This document shows, one piece after another, positions 1 through 23,729 of a stretch of DNA of 23,729 bases; positions within the stretch are counted from its first letter, which is position 1; each line of letters begins with the position of its first letter. The stretch is taken from the IMG/VR virus record IMGVR_UViG_2651869696_000004; one strand, 5' to 3'. The position numbers were made by a program, and so were the translations under genes. Origin of the DNA: a virus. Its lineage: Duplodnaviria > Heunggongvirae > Uroviricota > Caudoviricetes. The notes under the pieces were generated by a model that had not been told where the DNA came from, did not search any database, and worked only from the letters and a program-made list of their open reading frames with translations.

Positions 1-102
1 TGCCCGTTGACGGACTTCGGGGGAAAAACGAGTATTTTTAGTCATCCTGTTTACCTCTTTCTCAGGAAGTTTAGTCTCCAGGATTCCCGGGGCGGTTCAT
101 AA
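1..102 (+). CDS. 3' end of an ORF entering from the left edge (frame 1, stop TAA 100-102); possible upstream partner of the DUF1524 gene
   Basis: Open frame from window edge to TAA at 100-102, 4 nt before the TTG at 107; no recognisable motif in the 33 visible codons. Confidence 0.3.
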   Translation, partial: CPLTDFGGKTSIFSHPVYLFLRKFSLQDSRGGS

Positions 103-106
103 AGAA

Positions 107-946
107 TTGGTTGATGGTTTTGGCACAACCCCCATCTCACACTTTGGATATCGCATCGCAGACTATGATGTGACGACACTTTATCCGCTTGCTTTGTTCA
201 TTTCGATAGCTAACATCGCTGATGATGAGAAAGCAGCCATGTATAATGATCTTGTCTCCTACGTAGTACGAAGAGCCGTATGTGGCCTGACGCCAAAGAA
301 TTACAACAATGTATTTATGAATGTATTGCGGCACTTGGCTAAAACGGAAATTTCCAGTGTTGAGTTACGTAATATCCTCAATAACTTAAATGGCGAAGCC
401 TCACGTTGGCCTGGTGACTCAGAATTTCTCAACGCTTGCATCAATGCTCCACTTTATCCTGGCAGGCTCGACGCACCGAAAATGCGCTCAATGTTAACGG
501 AACTTGAAAGAGAACTTTGTCGCCAAGTGAAGACCGAAAAGCCTGATGTTCCAAATCTTTCTAATCTCGATATCGATCATCTTATGCCCCAAAGTTGGTA
601 TTCCTGTTGGCCTCTCGAAAATGGTCGTATGGTGACAAATTCAGATGCTACGGTATTGAACCAAATTGTTCTGTCTGGAACCGATCTTACCCCTGAACAG
701 CTACTGGTAAGGAAACGGCAACAAGCGATAGCTACTTTGGGAAATCTAACTTTGCTTAACCTTAGCGTAAACCGTTCTGTTCAGAATGCTGTATTTCTGA
801 AAAAACGTGATGCTCTCATCGTCCACACCAATCTACGACTGAACATTCCACTTATAGTTAAGGATAAATGGGATGAGGATGAAATCCTGGAGCGGGGTAA
901 AAATTTGGGGGAAATTGCATTGAAAGTATGGCCAAAACACGATTAA
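107..946 (+). CDS. DUF1524/GmrD-like His-Me finger (HNH-type) nuclease domain protein; start codon uncertain (TTG at 107 or ATG at 239)
   Basis: Motifs DIDHLMPQS and GNLTLLNLSVNRSVQNAVFLKKRD match the DUF1524 signature found at the C-terminus of GmrSD-type enzymes; in-frame stop at 8-10 excludes a longer N-terminus in this frame; appears lower in GC than the phage genes by eye. Confidence 0.7.
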   Translation: MVDGFGTTPISHFGYRIADYDVTTLYPLALFISIANIADDEKAAMYNDLVSYVVRRAVCGLTPKNYNNVFMNVLRHLAKTEISSVELRNILNNLNGEASRWPGDSEFLNACINAPLYPGRLDAPKMRSMLTELERELCRQVKTEKPDVPNLSNLDIDHLMPQSWYSCWPLENGRMVTNSDATVLNQIVLSGTDLTPEQLLVRKRQQAIATLGNLTLLNLSVNRSVQNAVFLKKRDALIVHTNLRLNIPLIVKDKWDEDEILERGKNLGEIALKVWPKHD

Positions 947-1041: not shown

Positions 1042-1170
1042 CTAGGTCTCGGACTTTGTACCGCTTATCTTGTTTTCAAAAATCAGCTCGCATCCTGCAC
1101 AGTTCAGCGCATTACGTTGTAGATCTGTGTTCTGGTCATTTGTTGATACGCGTACATAGCCAATAAGCAT
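1042..1170 (-). pseudogene. Serine DNA invertase (Gin/Pin/Hin/Cin family) N-terminal remnant, 43 codons then TAG
   Basis: Minus-strand translation from ATG at 1170 gives MLIGYVRVSTNDQNTDLQRNALNCAGCELIFENKISGTKSET*, which matches the conserved invertase N-terminus including the catalytic Ser in YVRVST; similarity ends about codon 40 and no downstream invertase sequence is present. Confidence 0.85.
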
Positions 1171-1224
1171 GGTAGATCCCCCTGACAAAAGCAGGAATGA
1201 TGCCATTTGCTCGTTATTTCTGCA

Positions 1225-1250
1225 TTTTCATAAACGTTGGTTTGGGAGAA
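1225..1250. repeat. Left crossover site of invertible segment (TTTTCATAAACG-TT-GGTTTGGGAGAA)
   Basis: 26-bp site with two 12-bp half-sites around a 2-bp core; inverted relative to 3145-3170 with a 14-bp perfect match; resembles gix/hix/pix architecture. Confidence 0.7.
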
Positions 1251-1747
1251 GGCTCTGCATTACCTGCGGTGTGCCTGTTCCGTGGCCTTCCGCCACTCCG
1301 CCGACAGGCTGGCTGAAATGCAATGGTGCGGCTTTTTCTGCTGAAGAATACCCGGAACTGGCAAAGGCTTACCCGACAAATAAATTGCCTGATTTACGCG
1401 GTGAATTTATTCGTGGCTGGGATGATGGGCGTAGTGCGGATGCGGGGAGAACAATATTATCCGCTCAGGGCGATGCCATACGTAATATCTATGGTGAGTT
1501 CAAGACTGTAAACACCGAAAATTATTCAATATGGGAATCAGTAGGCTCGTTTAAGGGGGCAGTGGTGCCTTTGAACCCCTCAACGAACAATAGTTATTTC
1601 TCCTTAGTCAGAAGTATGGTGACAGAAAGGTCCGAGGGCGGTGTTTACCCAAAAGTGATTGGCCTTGATGCTTCAAGAATTGTTCCAACTGCAAACGAAA
1701 ATCGACCCCGTAACATTGCCTTTAATTATATCGTGAGGGCTGCCTGA
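1251..1747 (+). CDS. Alternative tail-fibre C-terminal cassette (Sv'-like) with tail-collar domain; no start codon of its own; out of frame with the crossover site as it stands
   Basis: PVPWPSATPPTGWLKCNGAAFSAEEYPELAKAY...LPDLRGEFIRGWDDGR is a phage tail-collar-type motif; the track ORF 1169-1747 reads through the invertase start and the crossover site, so its first 27 codons are not genuine. Confidence 0.7.
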
Positions 1748-2349
1748 TGGATAAAGCTATATTAAATAAGGAACTCATCGCCACAAAGGCGGGAGATATT
1801 ACCGTTTATAATTATGATGGTGAAACACGAGAATATATTTCCACATCAACCGAATATCTTGCTGTGGGTGTCGGTATCCCGGCATGTTCCTGTTTAGATG
1901 CTCCTGGCTCATATAAAGCTGGTTATGCAATTTGCCGTTCTGCAGATTTTAACTCATGGGAATATGTGCCAGACCATCGCGGTGAAATCGTCTATAGCAC
2001 CGAAACAGGAGAATCAAAAGAAATCACAGCTCCGGGTGATTACCCTGAAAAGACAACCACTATCGCCCCGTTAACGCCATACGATAAATGGGATGGTGAG
2101 AAATGGGTGACGGATACCGAGGCACAGCATAGAGCAGCAGTAGACATGGCAGAAACACAGCGGCAGTCGCTGATTGATGCTGCAATGGTTTCCATTAGTC
2201 TGATTCAACTGAAATTGCAGGCCGGGAGGAAGCTGACGCAGGCAGAAAACACCCGACTTAACGCCGTGCTGGATTACACTGACGCGGTGACGGCAACAGA
2301 TACCAGCACCGCGCCGGATGTCATCTGGCCTGAACTGCCGGAGGCGTAG
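1747..2349 (+). CDS. Tail fibre assembly protein (Tfa), partner of the alternative fibre cassette
   Basis: 200 aa; start overlaps the cassette stop (TGATG); C-terminus DYTDAVTATDTSTAPDVIWPELPEA is similar to the C-terminus of the convergent Tfa. Confidence 0.8.
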   Translation: MDKAILNKELIATKAGDITVYNYDGETREYISTSTEYLAVGVGIPACSCLDAPGSYKAGYAICRSADFNSWEYVPDHRGEIVYSTETGESKEITAPGDYPEKTTTIAPLTPYDKWDGEKWVTDTEAQHRAAVDMAETQRQSLIDAAMVSISLIQLKLQAGRKLTQAENTRLNAVLDYTDAVTATDTSTAPDVIWPELPEA

Positions 2350-2773
2350 GCCATTCAATATCTGGAGCACTGGAGGTATCAACCAGCTCCAGTGCGTCCA
2401 GATAATCCAGCCACAAATTATATTGCGCCAGTTCGTCACCTTTCAGACGACCAATAGCGGCTTTACCAGGCCATTGTTTACTGTTCATATAATCGTTGGC
2501 CTGATTAATTAGTAGCTGTCTTTCTGATTCAGTAATTTCAGTAAGTTCTTCATGCGTAGGGGCAGGAATATCCGCCCACGCGGGCAGCCCATCACCTCCG
2601 GCAATACGGATTTTTCCTTGTGGCGGTTCAGCCATAAATTCACTGATAATATTTTGACTCACCTCCTTAGCATCTGATAAATCCCATCCCTCTGATTTAT
2701 ATTTATCAATCATATCCACAGGGAAAAAAGCATTATGCCTTGCGCTATAAACATATTCGTTCATATAAATCAT
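2321..2773 (-). CDS. Tail fibre assembly protein (Tfa) for the currently expressed fibre
   Basis: 150 aa immediately downstream of the fibre gene; conserved Tfa C-terminal region LWLDYLDALELVDTSSAPDIEWP; 3' ends of the two tfa genes overlap convergently at 2321-2349. Confidence 0.8.
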   Translation of the reverse strand: MIYMNEYVYSARHNAFFPVDMIDKYKSEGWDLSDAKEVSQNIISEFMAEPPQGKIRIAGGDGLPAWADIPAPTHEELTEITESERQLLINQANDYMNSKQWPGKAAIGRLKGDELAQYNLWLDYLDALELVDTSSAPDIEWPTPPAVQAR

Positions 2774-2784
2774 CCTGAATAAAA

Positions 2785-3447
2785 TTATTCACCAACAGCC
2801 CACCAACTGTAAGTCATTGACACCTTGTCGCTGGTTGATGCAGTTCTGTAAGCAGAATTAAAGCCGGTTAATGTTGGGCCTTCTACGGACATAACGAATC
2901 CACGCCCTGCACCAAAAGGCGCACCGCCATCGCCAGAATGGGTAAGAATGGCGATATCCGCTTTTTTAGGGAAAGGGATAGGAAATGTAATCCTCATTGT
3001 TTGCGTCGATAATTTCGGCATAGCCTCACCTCGACCATATTGCAGGATTTTCCCGTTGGGTAATTTCATCCATCCATCACCACTGGCAAAAGAGGTCATG
3101 TCCGGTATCTGATTTTCCCCTGTCCCCACCCCTCGTTTTGCTGCTTCTCCCAAACCAAGGTTTTCGAGAGCCGTTTTCACCGTGCCATCCGATTTGATAT
3201 CACCAAACGGATTCTTGCGGCTTAACAGCAGAGCACGAAGCGCGGTAAGCAACTGGTCGTTTCGCCCCTTCTCCAGGCTGGCACCGGATGCCTCCACCAC
3301 GCTGCAAAGCTCCTCCTGCAACATATCAAAGTAGTCATCATCCAGATCGGTGGCAGGTGTGCCGGTCTGGGGGTTACCACGGGTAAAACCGTTCTTACCC
3401 GCGCCGAACTTATCCTTCTGCGCGGTTTTCGTGTCTATACGATGCAT
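2785..3447 (-). CDS. Tail fibre protein (StfP-like); constant N-terminal part outside and variable C-terminal part inside the invertible segment
   Basis: 220 aa directly downstream of the gp48-like gene; crossover site 3145-3170 falls at codons 93-101 ([12 protein letters not shown]). Confidence 0.8.
3145..3170. repeat. Right crossover site of invertible segment (TTCTCCCAAACC-AA-GGTTTTCGAGAG)
   Basis: Inverted copy of the 1225-1250 site; core dinucleotides are identical when the sites are aligned in the same orientation. Confidence 0.7.
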
Positions 3448-8508: not shown

Positions 8509-10344
8509 TTACCTGCCAAAGCGCGTATAGCCAACATCATGGCTGACATCAAAACCGCTGGATCGCGTTTCCATAACCCGCATACCCGGAGGCGAATTCA
8601 CAAAAGAGACCTTGATCTCACCATCAACTTTTGGCGCAGAAGCTTTGTTAATCATGAAGGGATTCGGGCCTGTGGCATCGGAGGCGTTGTTTGACTGAGC
8701 CGGATCTACCGCCGGATAAGGTGTGTATCCCCGCGCCGGTATTCCCGTCCCATAAGCATCATAAGCACCCGCGCCCCACTGCGCAGAGTTAATGGCATCG
8801 ACCGTGTCACCGGAACTGTCGGTAAACCACTCAATAATTGGCTTCAGCTTGTCCCACATATTCTGAAACCACTTAACAACCGGTCCCCAGTTATTGATGA
8901 CCATCCCCAGCGGCGACCAGGCAAAAACTTTCTTCAGAAGTTCCCAGCCAGCCTCAAAATAAGGACCAATGGTTTCCCAGAGTTTCTTAAAATAAGGTCC
9001 GACAACATCCCAGTTAGTGATAATTAATCCCGCAGCCAGGGCTATCGCCGTCGCAATCATGCCAATCGGCGTCATCGACATGATCCTGCTGACAATACTG
9101 ATGGCACCGCCAACGCCCATCAATCCCAGTTTCAGAATCGCAAGACCGGCAGCAAGCCCGACGACGCCGCGAATAACCCGGGGATTTTCATCCGCAAACT
9201 TCGTGAATTTTTCCCCTAACACCCCCAGCCATTGCGTGATATTTTTAGCGTCACCAGAAAATGCGCCGCCAATAGCTGCAAGACCGTTAGTTGCGGTCCC
9301 CGTCATTGCCTCCCACAGGTTGGACAGCGTACCAAGCTGTGCCTGAACACGTTTATTCAGGCTGGCCTGTTTATTCATCTTCTGCTGGATCTGATCGTAG
9401 CCATCCTTTCCTTTATCGATTAGTGCATTGACCACCTGAAGGGTTTCGGCATCATCACCAAATATTGCCTTAAGTACACCTGTTCGCTTAACGTCGGTCA
9501 GTTTTCGCAGCTTTGCCAGTTGCCTGAACATGTTATCAAGACCGCCAAAACTTCCTTTGCCGTCAGTAAAATCGAGCTGTACCCCGAGTTTCTGGCGGGC
9601 CATGACTTTATTGACGTCCCTGATTTTCTTAACGCTTAATCCGGACTGGATAACTTTTCGCAGGGCATTACCTGCCGACTCCCCGTTCATCCCCATCTGA
9701 TCCATCATGACGCTGATGGGGGCAAGGCTCTGTGCAGCCTGAAGACCGTCCTTGTTCACCATCTTCAGAACAGAGCTGGTTTTAGTGAAGAAGGACAACA
9801 TGTTGGTATCGTCAACGCCCAGATAAAACGCCTTCTGGATAGTGTCGAACAGCCCCATCATGTCTTCTGACGCCGTTCCGGTAGCATCCTGCATCTTTGC
9901 GGCAAACTCAGCAGCCGCTTCCGGTGTTTTTTTCAGTTGTACCGCAAGATAAGCAGTCGCTTTCCCCACACCGCCAAGAATGTTTTCTGCCGGGATCCCC
10001 TGACGCACCAGCATCTGCATCATGTTCTGGAAATCAGCCGTTGTACCGGGTAGCTGGTTACCCAGACCAATAGCCAGTTTATTGATGTCCTGAAAGCTCT
10101 TTCCGACCTCACCGTTCGCATCCATCATGGCAACTTTCAGCCCGGTGGCGGCGTTTTCCTGATCGGCATAAGATTTCAGGGAAAGCGTCAGACCCGCTGC
10201 CAGTCCGCCACCAAGCGCCAGCCCACCCTGTGACGCTTCTTCCGCCTGGCGTTTAAATCCCCGGATTTTCTTTTGCATTTTCGACAGCGCGGGAGAAAGC
10301 CTGTCGACACCGGTGATCAACGCCTTAAGCTCAAATTCAGCCAT
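8509..10344 (-). CDS. Tail tape measure protein
   Basis: 611 aa; Gly/Ala-rich hydrophobic central segments; sits downstream of the chaperone pair. Confidence 0.85.
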   Translation of the reverse strand: MAEFELKALITGVDRLSPALSKMQKKIRGFKRQAEEASQGGLALGGGLAAGLTLSLKSYADQENAATGLKVAMMDANGEVGKSFQDINKLAIGLGNQLPGTTADFQNMMQMLVRQGIPAENILGGVGKATAYLAVQLKKTPEAAAEFAAKMQDATGTASEDMMGLFDTIQKAFYLGVDDTNMLSFFTKTSSVLKMVNKDGLQAAQSLAPISVMMDQMGMNGESAGNALRKVIQSGLSVKKIRDVNKVMARQKLGVQLDFTDGKGSFGGLDNMFRQLAKLRKLTDVKRTGVLKAIFGDDAETLQVVNALIDKGKDGYDQIQQKMNKQASLNKRVQAQLGTLSNLWEAMTGTATNGLAAIGGAFSGDAKNITQWLGVLGEKFTKFADENPRVIRGVVGLAAGLAILKLGLMGVGGAISIVSRIMSMTPIGMIATAIALAAGLIITNWDVVGPYFKKLWETIGPYFEAGWELLKKVFAWSPLGMVINNWGPVVKWFQNMWDKLKPIIEWFTDSSGDTVDAINSAQWGAGAYDAYGTGIPARGYTPYPAVDPAQSNNASDATGPNPFMINKASAPKVDGEIKVSFVNSPPGMRVMETRSSGFDVSHDVGYTRFGR

Positions 10345-21455: not shown

Positions 21456-21734
21456 CTAATGAATATTATTATTCAAATGCAGATTGTACTTTTGCTCTCC
21501 TAACCTACGAAGATCAGACTTATCACGGTTACATAGCCCCAGTGCTGATAGCAGACTTACATTCAAACTAAGACTATCCCCATAAGTCAGAGGATTGGGT
21601 ATAACTGGCTGTGGAGTTTCAGCGAGCAGGTTCGCCGGTAACGGTATCGTTGGAACCTGCACGTATACTGTCCGCGTACTTCCGCAACCGGTCAGCAGCG
21701 ACATCAGGCACAGGGCGTGAAGCGCAATCATCAT
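21456..21734 (-). CDS. Rz1: o-spanin (Rz1-like outer-membrane lipoprotein), overlapping the 3' end of Rz in another frame
   Basis: Internal start MMIALHALCLMSLLTGC with lipobox LTGC, followed by a Pro-rich segment; overlaps and extends beyond Rz. Confidence 0.65.
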   Translation of the reverse strand: MMIALHALCLMSLLTGCGSTRTVYVQVPTIPLPANLLAETPQPVIPNPLTYGDSLSLNVSLLSALGLCNRDKSDLRRLGEQKYNLHLNNNIH

Positions 21735-22011
21735 CCGCAACAGCCACTTTGATATCTTCCTGGGTTCTCTGTGACTCCAGTGCGATCTGCTGTTTTGCAT
21801 GCTGGTTAGCCTCCAAAACTGTATTGACGATTTGCATTGATTGCAGGACGTTATTGGTAATGGCAGTTGCTGATTCAGCATTTTGTAAAGCCTCATCAGC
21901 ACGTTTCTTTTCGTACTGATATTTGCTGTAGTAGTAGTTGGCTGACCAGATGAAAGAACCAATGGCAGTAACGAAAAAAGCAGCGATAATCAGCTTATAA
22001 CTCAACTTCAT
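21619..22011 (-). CDS. Rz: i-spanin (Rz-like)
   Basis: 130 aa; N-terminal transmembrane segment LIIAAFFVTAIGSFIW then coiled-coil periplasmic domain; directly after endolysin. Confidence 0.8.
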   Translation of the reverse strand: MKLSYKLIIAAFFVTAIGSFIWSANYYYSKYQYEKKRADEALQNAESATAITNNVLQSMQIVNTVLEANQHAKQQIALESQRTQEDIKVAVADDDCASRPVPDVAADRLRKYADSIRAGSNDTVTGEPAR

Positions 22012-22471
22012 TTACCACCCCACCAGCCTCTTTAAATCGGGCAATCAGGTCACCGATTTTATGTTCATACTGACCGTAACCTGCGCCCGGCAGTGAAGCC
22101 CAGATATTGCTGCAACGATCGATAGCCTGACGGATATCACCGCGATCAATCATCGGTAAAGCGCCACGCTCTTTAATCTGCTGCAATGCCACTGCGTCCT
22201 GGCTTTTGGGGGAGAAGTCTTTCAGACCAAGCTGTTTACGGTAAGCATCCCACCATCGGGAAAGAATCTGGTAGCGTCCAGCAGCCGTTGATTTAAGTTT
22301 TGGGTTTAGCGTGACAAGTTTGCGAGGGTGGTCGGAGTAATCAGTGAAGAGTTCACCACCGACAATAACGTCATAACCGTGGTTACATGTCGGTTGCCGT
22401 CCATTATCCGTTCCTTCTGACCATGCCACCATATCGAGGAAAGCTTTACGCTGGGAATTTAGTACCTGCAT
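21995..22471 (-). CDS. R: Endolysin, lambda R-type lytic transglycosylase
   Basis: 158 aa; close to lambda R over the full length as recalled from memory (NQRKAFLDM.AWSEGTDNGRQ...), not confirmed by search. Confidence 0.9.
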   Translation of the reverse strand: MQVLNSQRKAFLDMVAWSEGTDNGRQPTCNHGYDVIVGGELFTDYSDHPRKLVTLNPKLKSTAAGRYQILSRWWDAYRKQLGLKDFSPKSQDAVALQQIKERGALPMIDRGDIRQAIDRCSNIWASLPGAGYGQYEHKIGDLIARFKEAGGVVNEVEL

Positions 22472-22474
22472 AAA

Positions 22475-22810
22475 TTACTCCTTAGAGCCACCAAACTTGT
22501 TACCGATTACTCTCATTGCAGCCCCACGAATTGCATCGACCCCGATCAGCCCCACCCCACCACCAATGGCAACAGAAAGCGATTTAGGCCATCCGACATA
22601 CTCAAGCGCGGATGCAAAGGTCAGCGTCAGAGCGCCACAGAGCAAAATTTCGAGTGTTTTTCGTTTCCAGCCGCCACCACCACCAAAATAGGCAATACGC
22701 AAACCAGCCATAACAATCGACATAATCACTGCGCCCAGCGGCGTATCTCCACGCCACCAGCTCTGGAACAACTCCAGCCAGTCCGGCCAGGTATTTGGGT
22801 TATGAGGCAT
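22475..22810 (-). CDS. Putative holin (three predicted transmembrane segments); start set at ATG 22810
   Basis: Immediately upstream of endolysin; three hydrophobic segments and charged C-terminus; GAGGTGA upstream of ATG 22810; the track start at 22882 is a GTG inside the terminator hairpin. Confidence 0.55.
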   Translation of the reverse strand: MPHNPNTWPDWLELFQSWWRGDTPLGAVIMSIVMAGLRIAYFGGGGGWKRKTLEILLCGALTLTFASALEYVGWPKSLSVAIGGGVGLIGVDAIRGAAMRVIGNKFGGSKE

Positions 22811-22852: not shown

Positions 22853-22880
22853 GGAAATAAAAAGGCCACGCAACGTGGCC
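22853..22880 (-). terminator. Intrinsic terminator on the late-gene strand (7-bp GC stem, 3-nt loop, then TTTTTATTT)
   Basis: Minus strand reads GGCCACG-TTG-CGTGGCC followed by TTTTTATTTCC; lies between methyltransferase stop and holin start. Confidence 0.6.
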
Positions 22881-22887
22881 ACCAGAA

Positions 22888-23646
22888 TTATTTCCCCACC
22901 AGTTCACTTACCTCTTTCACTGTCTGGTTAAACCGATCTGACTCAAGCTCAACACCTAACGCCCGACGCCCCAGCTCCATTGCTGCTTTTATTGTGGAAC
23001 CAGATCCCATAAAAAAATCAGCAACCAGATCACCTGGTCGACTACTGGCATTGATTATTTGCCGGAGCATATCCGCCGGTTTCTCACACGGATGTTTACC
23101 CGGGTAGAACTGAACGGGTTTATGCGTCCAGACATCGGTATAAGGCACGGAGACTGATACGGAGAAATAGCGCCGGAGAGATTTAAACTCATCCAGCAAT
23201 TCAGAATATTTGCGATTCAGTGAATCATAAGATGCCACCAGCTGGTGGTGTGTCTGTTCCAGTTGTTGTTCCTGAAACTTCTCTGCCGCTATACGGGAAA
23301 ACAGTGCCTGCAACTTCCGGTAGTCAGCCTCATTCGGCAACTGCCACTGACTGGCACCAAACCAGTGGGAAACCATGTTTTTCTTACCAGTGGCTTCGGC
23401 AATCTGTTTTGCCGTTATACCCAGTTCGGCACGTGCATCCCTGAAATACGATATCAGCGGTGCCATTATGTGCTGTTTGAGTTCCCTTTCTTTTTCCGCA
23501 TAGCCGTCACTTTTGCCGCGATATGGCCCCTGGTAATGTTCAGCAAACAGAACGCGCTCTGTAGCGGGGAAATATGCCCGCAGGCTTTCTTTATTACACC
23601 CGTTCCATCGTCCGGACGGCTTCGCCCAGATGGGTAATGACTCCAA
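22888..23646 (-). CDS. DNA methyltransferase (N6-adenine/N4-cytosine, beta-class-like) lacking the N-terminal DPPY-type motif in this frame
   Basis: C-terminus HPCEKPADMLRQIINASSRPGDLVADFFMGSGST matches the HPTQKP...DPFAGSGTT AdoMet-binding region of YhdJ-type methylases; no DPPY-like motif upstream; TTG start. Confidence 0.7.
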   Translation of the reverse strand: MESLPIWAKPSGRWNGCNKESLRAYFPATERVLFAEHYQGPYRGKSDGYAEKERELKQHIMAPLISYFRDARAELGITAKQIAEATGKKNMVSHWFGASQWQLPNEADYRKLQALFSRIAAEKFQEQQLEQTHHQLVASYDSLNRKYSELLDEFKSLRRYFSVSVSVPYTDVWTHKPVQFYPGKHPCEKPADMLRQIINASSRPGDLVADFFMGSGSTIKAAMELGRRALGVELESDRFNQTVKEVSELVGK

Positions 23647-23647
23647 C

Positions 23648-23729
23648 TTATTGATAGTGTTTTATGTTCAGATAATGCCCGATGACTTTGTCATGCAGCT
23701 CCACCGATTTTGAGAACGACAGCGACTTC
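23648..23729 (-). CDS. 3' end of an ORF entering from the right edge (stop TAA 23648-23650)
   Basis: Open frame from window edge ending 2 nt before the methyltransferase TTG; may be the missing N-terminal part of the methyltransferase in another frame, or a separate gene. Confidence 0.3.
   Translation of the reverse strand, partial: KSLSFSKSVELHDKVIGHYLNIKHYQ

Follow-up and report, generated by a model that had tools for sequence, protein, structure and literature searches.

The M.EcoGII family of prophage-borne adenine methyltransferases

M.EcoGII and M.EcoGI are non-specific adenine DNA methyltransferases from prophages of E. coli O104:H4 C227-11 (PMC5778455; PMC7544214). The relatives of M.EcoGII are typical beta-class enzymes with an N-terminal DPPY (motif IV), a target-recognition domain (TRD) in the centre and FxGxG (motif I) at the C-terminal end (PMC5778455; PMC7544214). 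Motif IV and motif I are located on adjacent strands of one catalytic fold, and beta-class enzymes work as dimers with division of labour (PMC7544214). Members of the family are silent in the lysogen and toxic if expressed, and lytic growth is presumed to activate them (PMC5778455; PMC7544214); it has been proposed that their late-expressed, broad adenine methylation shields progeny DNA from restriction (PMC5778455).

The locus described here lies at the right edge of a 23,729-nt stretch of tailed-phage DNA (IMG/VR record IMGVR_UViG_2651869696_000004), which as a whole is referred to as the window. A first-pass annotation had drawn attention to an ORF with the C-terminal AdoMet-binding region of a DNA methyltransferase, which is abutted by a second ORF in another frame. 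We consider it about 96% probable that an IS1 insertion into a methylase gene of the M.EcoGII family accounts for both the truncated ORF and the abutting one. A 768-bp IS1 would have transposed into codons 103–106 of the gene for a 350-aa orphan DNA adenine methyltransferase and would have made its usual 9-bp target duplication (CATCTGGGC). The target is a beta-class gene of the M.EcoGII family with the motif order IV(DPPY)-TRD-I(FxGxG). It belongs to the late operon of an E. coli/Shigella prophage of the SfV/SfII-like type, where it has the Q antiterminator on one side and the holin on the other. The window would be a draft-assembly contig halting 97 nt into the repeated IS1 and, since it stops inside the element, it shows just the right end of IS1 joined to the 3′ 745 nt of the gene. 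The TTG-initiated ORF would then be a mechanical read-out beginning in the IS1 inverted repeat, with the catalytic DPPY half across IS1 on another contig. The locus is a pseudogene of an ordinary kind, since the family is characterised and the disruption is by an IS, and thus already known biology. It should be annotated as an IS1-disrupted pseudogene of an M.EcoGII-family methyltransferase and not as a new truncated, two-part or divergent enzyme.

The features at the right edge of the window are:

22888..23646, minus strand: methyltransferase-remnant ORF, 252 aa, TTG start, first ATG at codon 61
22888..23632, minus strand: 3′ fragment of the M.EcoGII-family beta-class DNA adenine methyltransferase gene, 745 of 1053 nt, from the third base of codon 103 to the stop codon
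23624..23632, minus strand: one copy of the target-site duplication (9 bp, CATCTGGGC), with which the kept gene fragment begins, repeated before the IS1 left end on contig JHQY01000104.1
23633..23729, minus strand: right (3′) end of IS1, of which the final 97 nt are present together with the terminal inverted repeat, 97/97 identical to IS1A of E. coli ECN24
23648..23728, minus strand: InsB, the IS1 transposase, with its last 26 codons plus stop codon (Pfam DDE_Tnp_IS1, E = 2.1e-10, profile positions 106–131 of 131)

The methyltransferase fragment and its intact homologues

The ORF at 22888..23646 contains both HPCEKP and DFFMGSGST, as had been noted at first reading, and the latter aligns with motif I (FxGxG) of solved beta-class enzymes. 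It passes the gathering threshold of Pfam PF01555 (N6_N4_Mtase) with 84.6 bits (threshold 26.7), the match covering only profile positions 132–220 of 221, which is the C-terminal part. A search of the ORF for DPPY or any (D/N/S)PP(Y/F/W) version of motif IV found none, so that the ORF is to be regarded as a gene fragment rather than as an enzyme of the PF01555 family. The absence of DPPY, the TTG start and the position of the first ATG had all been described correctly. Phage methyltransferases match the ORF with 97–98% identity (E about 1e-152), which evidently is not a chance similarity.

The homologues from phages SfV (orf48, NP_599080.1), mEp460, cdtI, Ayreon and vB_EcoM-720R4, which are 97–98% identical in amino acid sequence to the window fragment over residues 104–350, are uninterrupted ORFs of 1053 nt; from the window copy, codons 1–102 are missing owing to IS1. 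Genes of the SfV orf48 type occupy the same place as the window gene, between Q/orf47 and a terminator-holin-endolysin-Rz series. The intact homologues have 350 aa with DPPY at residues 35–38, i.e., inside the 102 2/3 codons missing here, so the earlier suggestion of an N-terminal truncation is right for what the window contains. What is kept comprises motif I (DFFMGSGST), which binds AdoMet, as well as the target-recognition region. At the nucleotide level the 745 nt at 22888..23632 are identical (745/745) to a CDS of E. coli FT130 with a length of 1053 nt, at its 3′ end, and these 745 nt of the methylase gene occur in 1070 E. coli genomes.

The intact allele shares 279 of 347 residues (80%) with M.EcoGII, and the window fragment 191 of 246 (78%) with M.EcoGII residues 104–348; the M.EcoGII reference used for these numbers was machine-read from supplementary file 5 of PMC11551740 and may hold a few transcription errors. 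The two proteins are of nearly the same length (349 aa in M.EcoGII, 350 aa in the intact allele) and have the beta-class order DPPY-TRD-FxGxG in common. Both genes are prophage-borne and orphan, without a cognate nuclease: the window gene, in a lambdoid setting, is flanked by Q/orf47 and the holin gene, with lysis and packaging genes as neighbours and without a cognate restriction gene. Unlike the M.EcoGII gene, however, it is interrupted by IS1 and can no longer encode the full enzyme. It should also be noted that it belongs to the SfV orf48/mEp460/cdtI sub-clade (97–98%) and is not an M.EcoGII allele, its presumed non-specificity being an analogy drawn from M.EcoGII.

The label "YhdJ-type" given at first reading holds at the level of the Pfam family only. 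E. coli YhdJ shares PF01555 and the beta-class motif order with the window gene, but the YhdJ-type equivalog model (NCBIfam NF008572/PRK11524) scores SfV orf48 with 109.2 bits and the window ORF with 42 bits at a cut-off of 292. The window gene is therefore a distant paralogue of YhdJ rather than a YhdJ-type enzyme.

In the presumed target-recognition region, residues 69–95 of the ORF (window 23361..23441, minus strand) give a sub-threshold match to Pfam HTH_3 (E = 0.021, 15.3 bits, cut-off 23). The stretch concerned, LGITAKQIAEATGKKNMVSHW, is conserved in M.EcoGII and could be a helix-turn-helix-like DNA-contact element of this non-specific methylase family. A Pfam Pou match in the middle of the ORF is likewise below threshold (E = 0.091).

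An IS1 end at the right edge of the window

The second ORF, which enters from the right edge in another frame, ends with TAA at 23650..23648, and a single base (G, 23647) separates this stop codon from the TTG; the distance of 2 nt given previously differs only in counting convention. Its translation is the C-terminus of InsB, and the proposal that it could be a methyltransferase part is thereby contradicted. The DNA around it is the end of IS1: the terminus ...GGAGTCATTACC finishes at 23633, and the window stops inside the element. As reference the annotated 768-bp IS1A of E. coli ECN24 was used, which is itself flanked by a 9-bp target duplication; the two elements have in common the identical terminal 97 nt, the InsB C-terminus and a 9-bp target duplication. 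IS1A of ECN24 is complete, whereas at the window site the ends are visible and the interior is unassembled. Indeed, only ends of IS1 were assembled here (97 nt in the window, 96 nt on contig JHQY01000104.1), all retrieved contigs stopping 96–99 nt into the element, and that a complete 768-bp IS1 is present at the methylase site is our assumption. IS1 and the methylase gene have the same orientation.

The boundary is equally sharp in genome comparisons. In a megablast search of 22888..23729 against 5,426 complete E. coli genomes, query bases 1–97 behaved as a multi-copy repeat, found at 72,959 places in 5,041 genomes, and query bases 98–842 matched a single-copy "DNA-methyltransferase" gene. 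Homology to the intact genes begins abruptly at 23632 (query base 98), right after ...CATTACC of IS1. By its sequence the ORF at 22888..23646 is a chimera, which takes its 5′ start from IS1 and the rest from the methylase gene. The IS1-derived part comprises the TTG (23646..23644) and 11 further bases (23643..23633), together 14 nt or 4 2/3 codons, and the TTG "start" sits within the terminal inverted repeat. The first residues, MESLP, are IS1 sequence except for the last base of the proline codon, and it is for this reason that the tblastn matches of the ORF to phage methylases start at residue 6 (residues 6–252). No Shine-Dalgarno-like sequence was seen upstream of the TTG (CATAAAACACTATCAATAAG|TTG) or of the ATG at codon 61 (GGGAACTCAAACAGCACATA|ATG), and the 3′ fragment is therefore probably translated little or not at all.

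A frameshift typically shows itself as abutting ORFs in different frames, and the first-pass annotation had indeed considered a gene split by a frameshift, in which case (or in that of a nonsense split) the upstream ORF should be the displaced N-terminal half. A point-mutation split of the same allele is even known from a related strain (GAA to TAA at codon 149, Logan SRR10098858). The upstream ORF, however, is InsB and has no similarity to methyltransferases, and the nucleotide identity to intact genes stops at the IS1 terminus, with no continuation in another frame. The gene is split, as had been supposed, but by a 768-bp IS1; the chance that a frameshift or nonsense mutation did it is negligible. 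As a practical consequence, a search for IS termini should come first whenever an ORF abuts a contig edge.

The other half of the gene

A simple insertion of IS1 makes an exact prediction for the other side of the element: 106 codons including DPPY should end in the 9-bp CATCTGGGC and be followed by the left end of IS1, GGTGATGCTGCC..., so that the chimeric 5′ product should read ...NHIIWAVMLPTY*. In an exact-sequence look-up among about 15 billion proteins the predicted 112-aa product was found exactly, and the products expected for an 8-bp duplication, a 10-bp duplication or a different inverted-repeat variant were all three absent.

The 112-aa product comes from the extreme end of contig JHQY01000104.1 (our locus L007), which belongs to assembly GCA_001265185.1. 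On this contig the prophage early region and Q precede the 5′ fragment, the Q-orf47-methylase 5′ region being colinear with SfV, and 96 nt identical to the left end of IS1A follow. The second copy of CATCTGGGC is found at 8734..8742 of L007, directly before the IS1 left end. Another contig of the same assembly, JHQY01000067.1 (23,727 bp), was compared with the window over 10,842 bases and shows 0 mismatches. The 5′ fragment is thus known from contigs of a sequence-identical assembly, which is not necessarily the window's own sample, and no contig spans IS1.

When the 5′ fragment and the window fragment are joined in silico without IS1 and without one copy of the duplication, an intact open frame of 1053 nt (350 aa) results. 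Its sole difference from the FT130 gene is at base 3, FT130 having ATA where the joined gene has ATG. The lack of any substitution against the intact allele points to a very recent event without adaptation, and judging from the sequences compared the lesion is a recent and simple insertion of IS1 that has not been followed by secondary decay.

Adjacent deletions are a known consequence of IS1, what adjoins it on the far side is not visible in the window, and at least one other gene of the prophage is IS-truncated (at window 1..99). An IS1-mediated deletion or rearrangement that removed or displaced the gene's 5′ part, perhaps along with the early region of the prophage, and left a true terminal truncation had thus to be considered. 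It is very improbable in view of the complementary junction in the sequence-identical assembly: the matching 9-bp direct repeat is the hallmark of a simple insertion and would have been destroyed by an adjacent deletion, and the colinearity with SfV upstream of the repeat also speaks against a rearrangement.

The same junctions bear on the question whether the join between IS1 and the gene is merely a chimera formed at a contig end, the gene being intact in the real genome. Both ends of the window are IS ends, and a short-read contig with collapsed repeats as its boundaries is expected to look like this. Nevertheless, a unique sequence running exactly to an IS terminus, with the contig end in the repeat, is the pattern of a true insertion. 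Moreover, the IS1/gene right junction recurs in a second assembly (GCA_002075125.1), and in one of the two assemblies the reciprocal junction with the matching target duplication is present. An assembly artefact can therefore be practically dismissed. Among the 5,426 complete E. coli genomes there was no record with the window junction; the best full-length match (ECN24) has IS1 inserted elsewhere, upstream of a related gene. The source strain must accordingly be a draft genome of E. coli or Shigella that this set does not include. The exact 40-nt junction pattern had 0 hits in genome contigs with one genome per species, a collection too sparse for a strain-specific insertion.

Consequences for the enzyme

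The first-pass annotation had also entertained a two-part or divergent enzyme. Such an enzyme would require that the fragments complement each other, or that the C-terminal part functions as a non-catalytic AdoMet/DNA-binding protein. The division of labour in beta-class dimers (PMC7544214) lends this idea some attraction, and both the 112-aa DPPY-containing N-fragment and the C-fragment are still encoded in the same prophage. Yet the split was made by a mobile element and is not an evolved gene architecture. In FT130, in phage SfV and in the Logan SRR10098858 locus (L005) the methylase is a continuous stretch of the same length, 1053 nt, although with a premature stop in L005, and removal of IS1 plus one 9-bp copy restores the single 350-aa ORF of the window allele. 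The break lies inside the N-terminal block of the catalytic domain that aligns with solved beta-class enzymes (query 9–112), the C-fragment is without a plausible ribosome-binding site at either the TTG or the first ATG, and the complete absence of substitutions leaves no sign of adaptation to a divided state. We give a functional two-part or N-terminally divergent methyltransferase scarcely any credence.

Disruption by IS1 thus being the preferred reading, neither gene fragment should be able to methylate DNA alone because motif IV and motif I must share one catalytic fold (PMC7544214), and a phage-specific methylation motif from this locus is not to be expected. Progeny phage would lose the late-expressed broad adenine methylation proposed for the M.EcoGII family (PMC5778455). 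A prophage without its late-expressed, probably broad-specificity adenine methylase would release phage that is more sensitive to restriction. The anti-restriction role previously suggested for a phage-borne orphan methylase at this position fits the intact M.EcoGII relatives (PMC5778455) but not the window copy, which is presumably inactivated.

Prophage context

The whole window is the late region of an SfV/SfII/SfI/SfIV-like prophage with the gene order lysis, terminase, portal, capsid, Mu-like sheath, tape measure, baseplate and tail fibres. Outside the methylase it is 96–97.5% identical to morphogenesis modules of the SfII/SfI/SfIV/SfV type and of vB_EcoM phages. Within the late operon, the lysis and morphogenesis genes are located downstream of IS1. 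The features downstream of the methylase are:

22864..22880, minus strand: G+C-rich hairpin plus T-run (GGCCACGTTGCGTGGCC TTTTTATTTC) between the methylase stop codon and the holin gene
22475..22810, minus strand: holin S (Pfam Phage_holin_3_1, E = 4.6e-27)
21995..22471, minus strand: endolysin, gene order as in SfV and FT130
21619..22011, minus strand: Rz/Rz1, gene order as in SfV and FT130

The hairpin corresponds in place to an annotated rho-independent terminator in SfV (3252..3283 of our locus L002), and its sequence is conserved in the alignment. The lysis cassette (21619..22810, minus strand) follows the methylase in the same late transcription unit, and its order agrees with the annotations of SfV and FT130 and with the gene calls on the identical contig JHQY01000067.1. 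Antitermination can overcome IS polarity. Since Q-modified RNA polymerase resists termination, late transcription probably still reaches the lysis genes past IS1, as judged by analogy.

The left end of the window (1..99) is the terminus of an IS3-family (IS629-like) element, a sequence that 3,606 E. coli genomes carry at 23,337 places. The gene truncated by this element, at 107..946 (plus strand), is of the DUF262/GmrSD type (type IV restriction-like), and only its GmrSD_C/DUF1524 half is left as a 279-aa ORF (Pfam E = 8e-21); the intact gene in E. coli WP2-S18-ESBL-07 has 1890 nt. A prophage-borne defence gene has thus also been killed by an IS.

Other lesions in the methylase family

A lesion or possible lesion was encountered at four loci among the few inspected, namely the IS1 in the window, a nonsense codon 149, the ATA start of FT130 and the IS1 of ECN24. 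Several independent lesions in the methylase family give a hint of counter-selection of a toxic enzyme, drawn from few loci. That the IS1 in the window is itself one case of a recurrent, selected silencing of the toxic methylase in lysogens or, more exotically, that low-level methylation arises from non-covalent reassembly of the 112-aa DPPY fragment with the C-terminal one is in our estimation very improbable, and the plain IS1-disrupted pseudogene remains the preferred reading.

In the locus from Logan SRR10098858 (9527..10579 of L005) the same allele has been inactivated independently, without IS1, by a change of GAA to TAA at codon 149, which splits the methylase into gene calls of 148 aa and 192 aa. 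In E. coli FT130 (2193..2195 of our locus L001) there is ATA in place of ATG (CCATAAAAAATACTG versus CCATGAAAAATACTG). This gene is still annotated as an intact CDS, and the ATA is possibly another silencing lesion. In E. coli ECN24 (1830..2597 of our locus L003) a complete 768-bp IS1A with the target duplication CCAGAGTTA is located 24 bp upstream of a methylase ATG and parts this related gene of 1062 nt from its upstream late-operon sequence. Here IS1 has struck the same locus independently, in another prophage.

Further observations on the prophage

Between 1169 and 3447 the window carries two opposed pairs of a tail-fibre-tip and a tail-fibre-assembly gene:

1169..1747 and 1747..2349, plus strand: tail-fibre pair genes
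2321..2773 and 2785..3447, minus strand: tail-fibre pair genes

The arrangement resembles an invertible host-range cassette like the G segment of Mu. In related E. coli prophages there is just a partial "recombinase family protein" beside the tail-fibre cassette, so the switch may be locked in place.

Outside the window, the early region of the same prophage encodes a second methyltransferase (3877..4530 of L007, contig JHQY01000104.1). It is a member of the phage Dam family (Pfam PF05869) and adjoins PerC-like and LexA-like genes. Phage-specific methylation in this lysogen, if there is any, more likely comes from this Dam-family gene than from the disrupted methylase.
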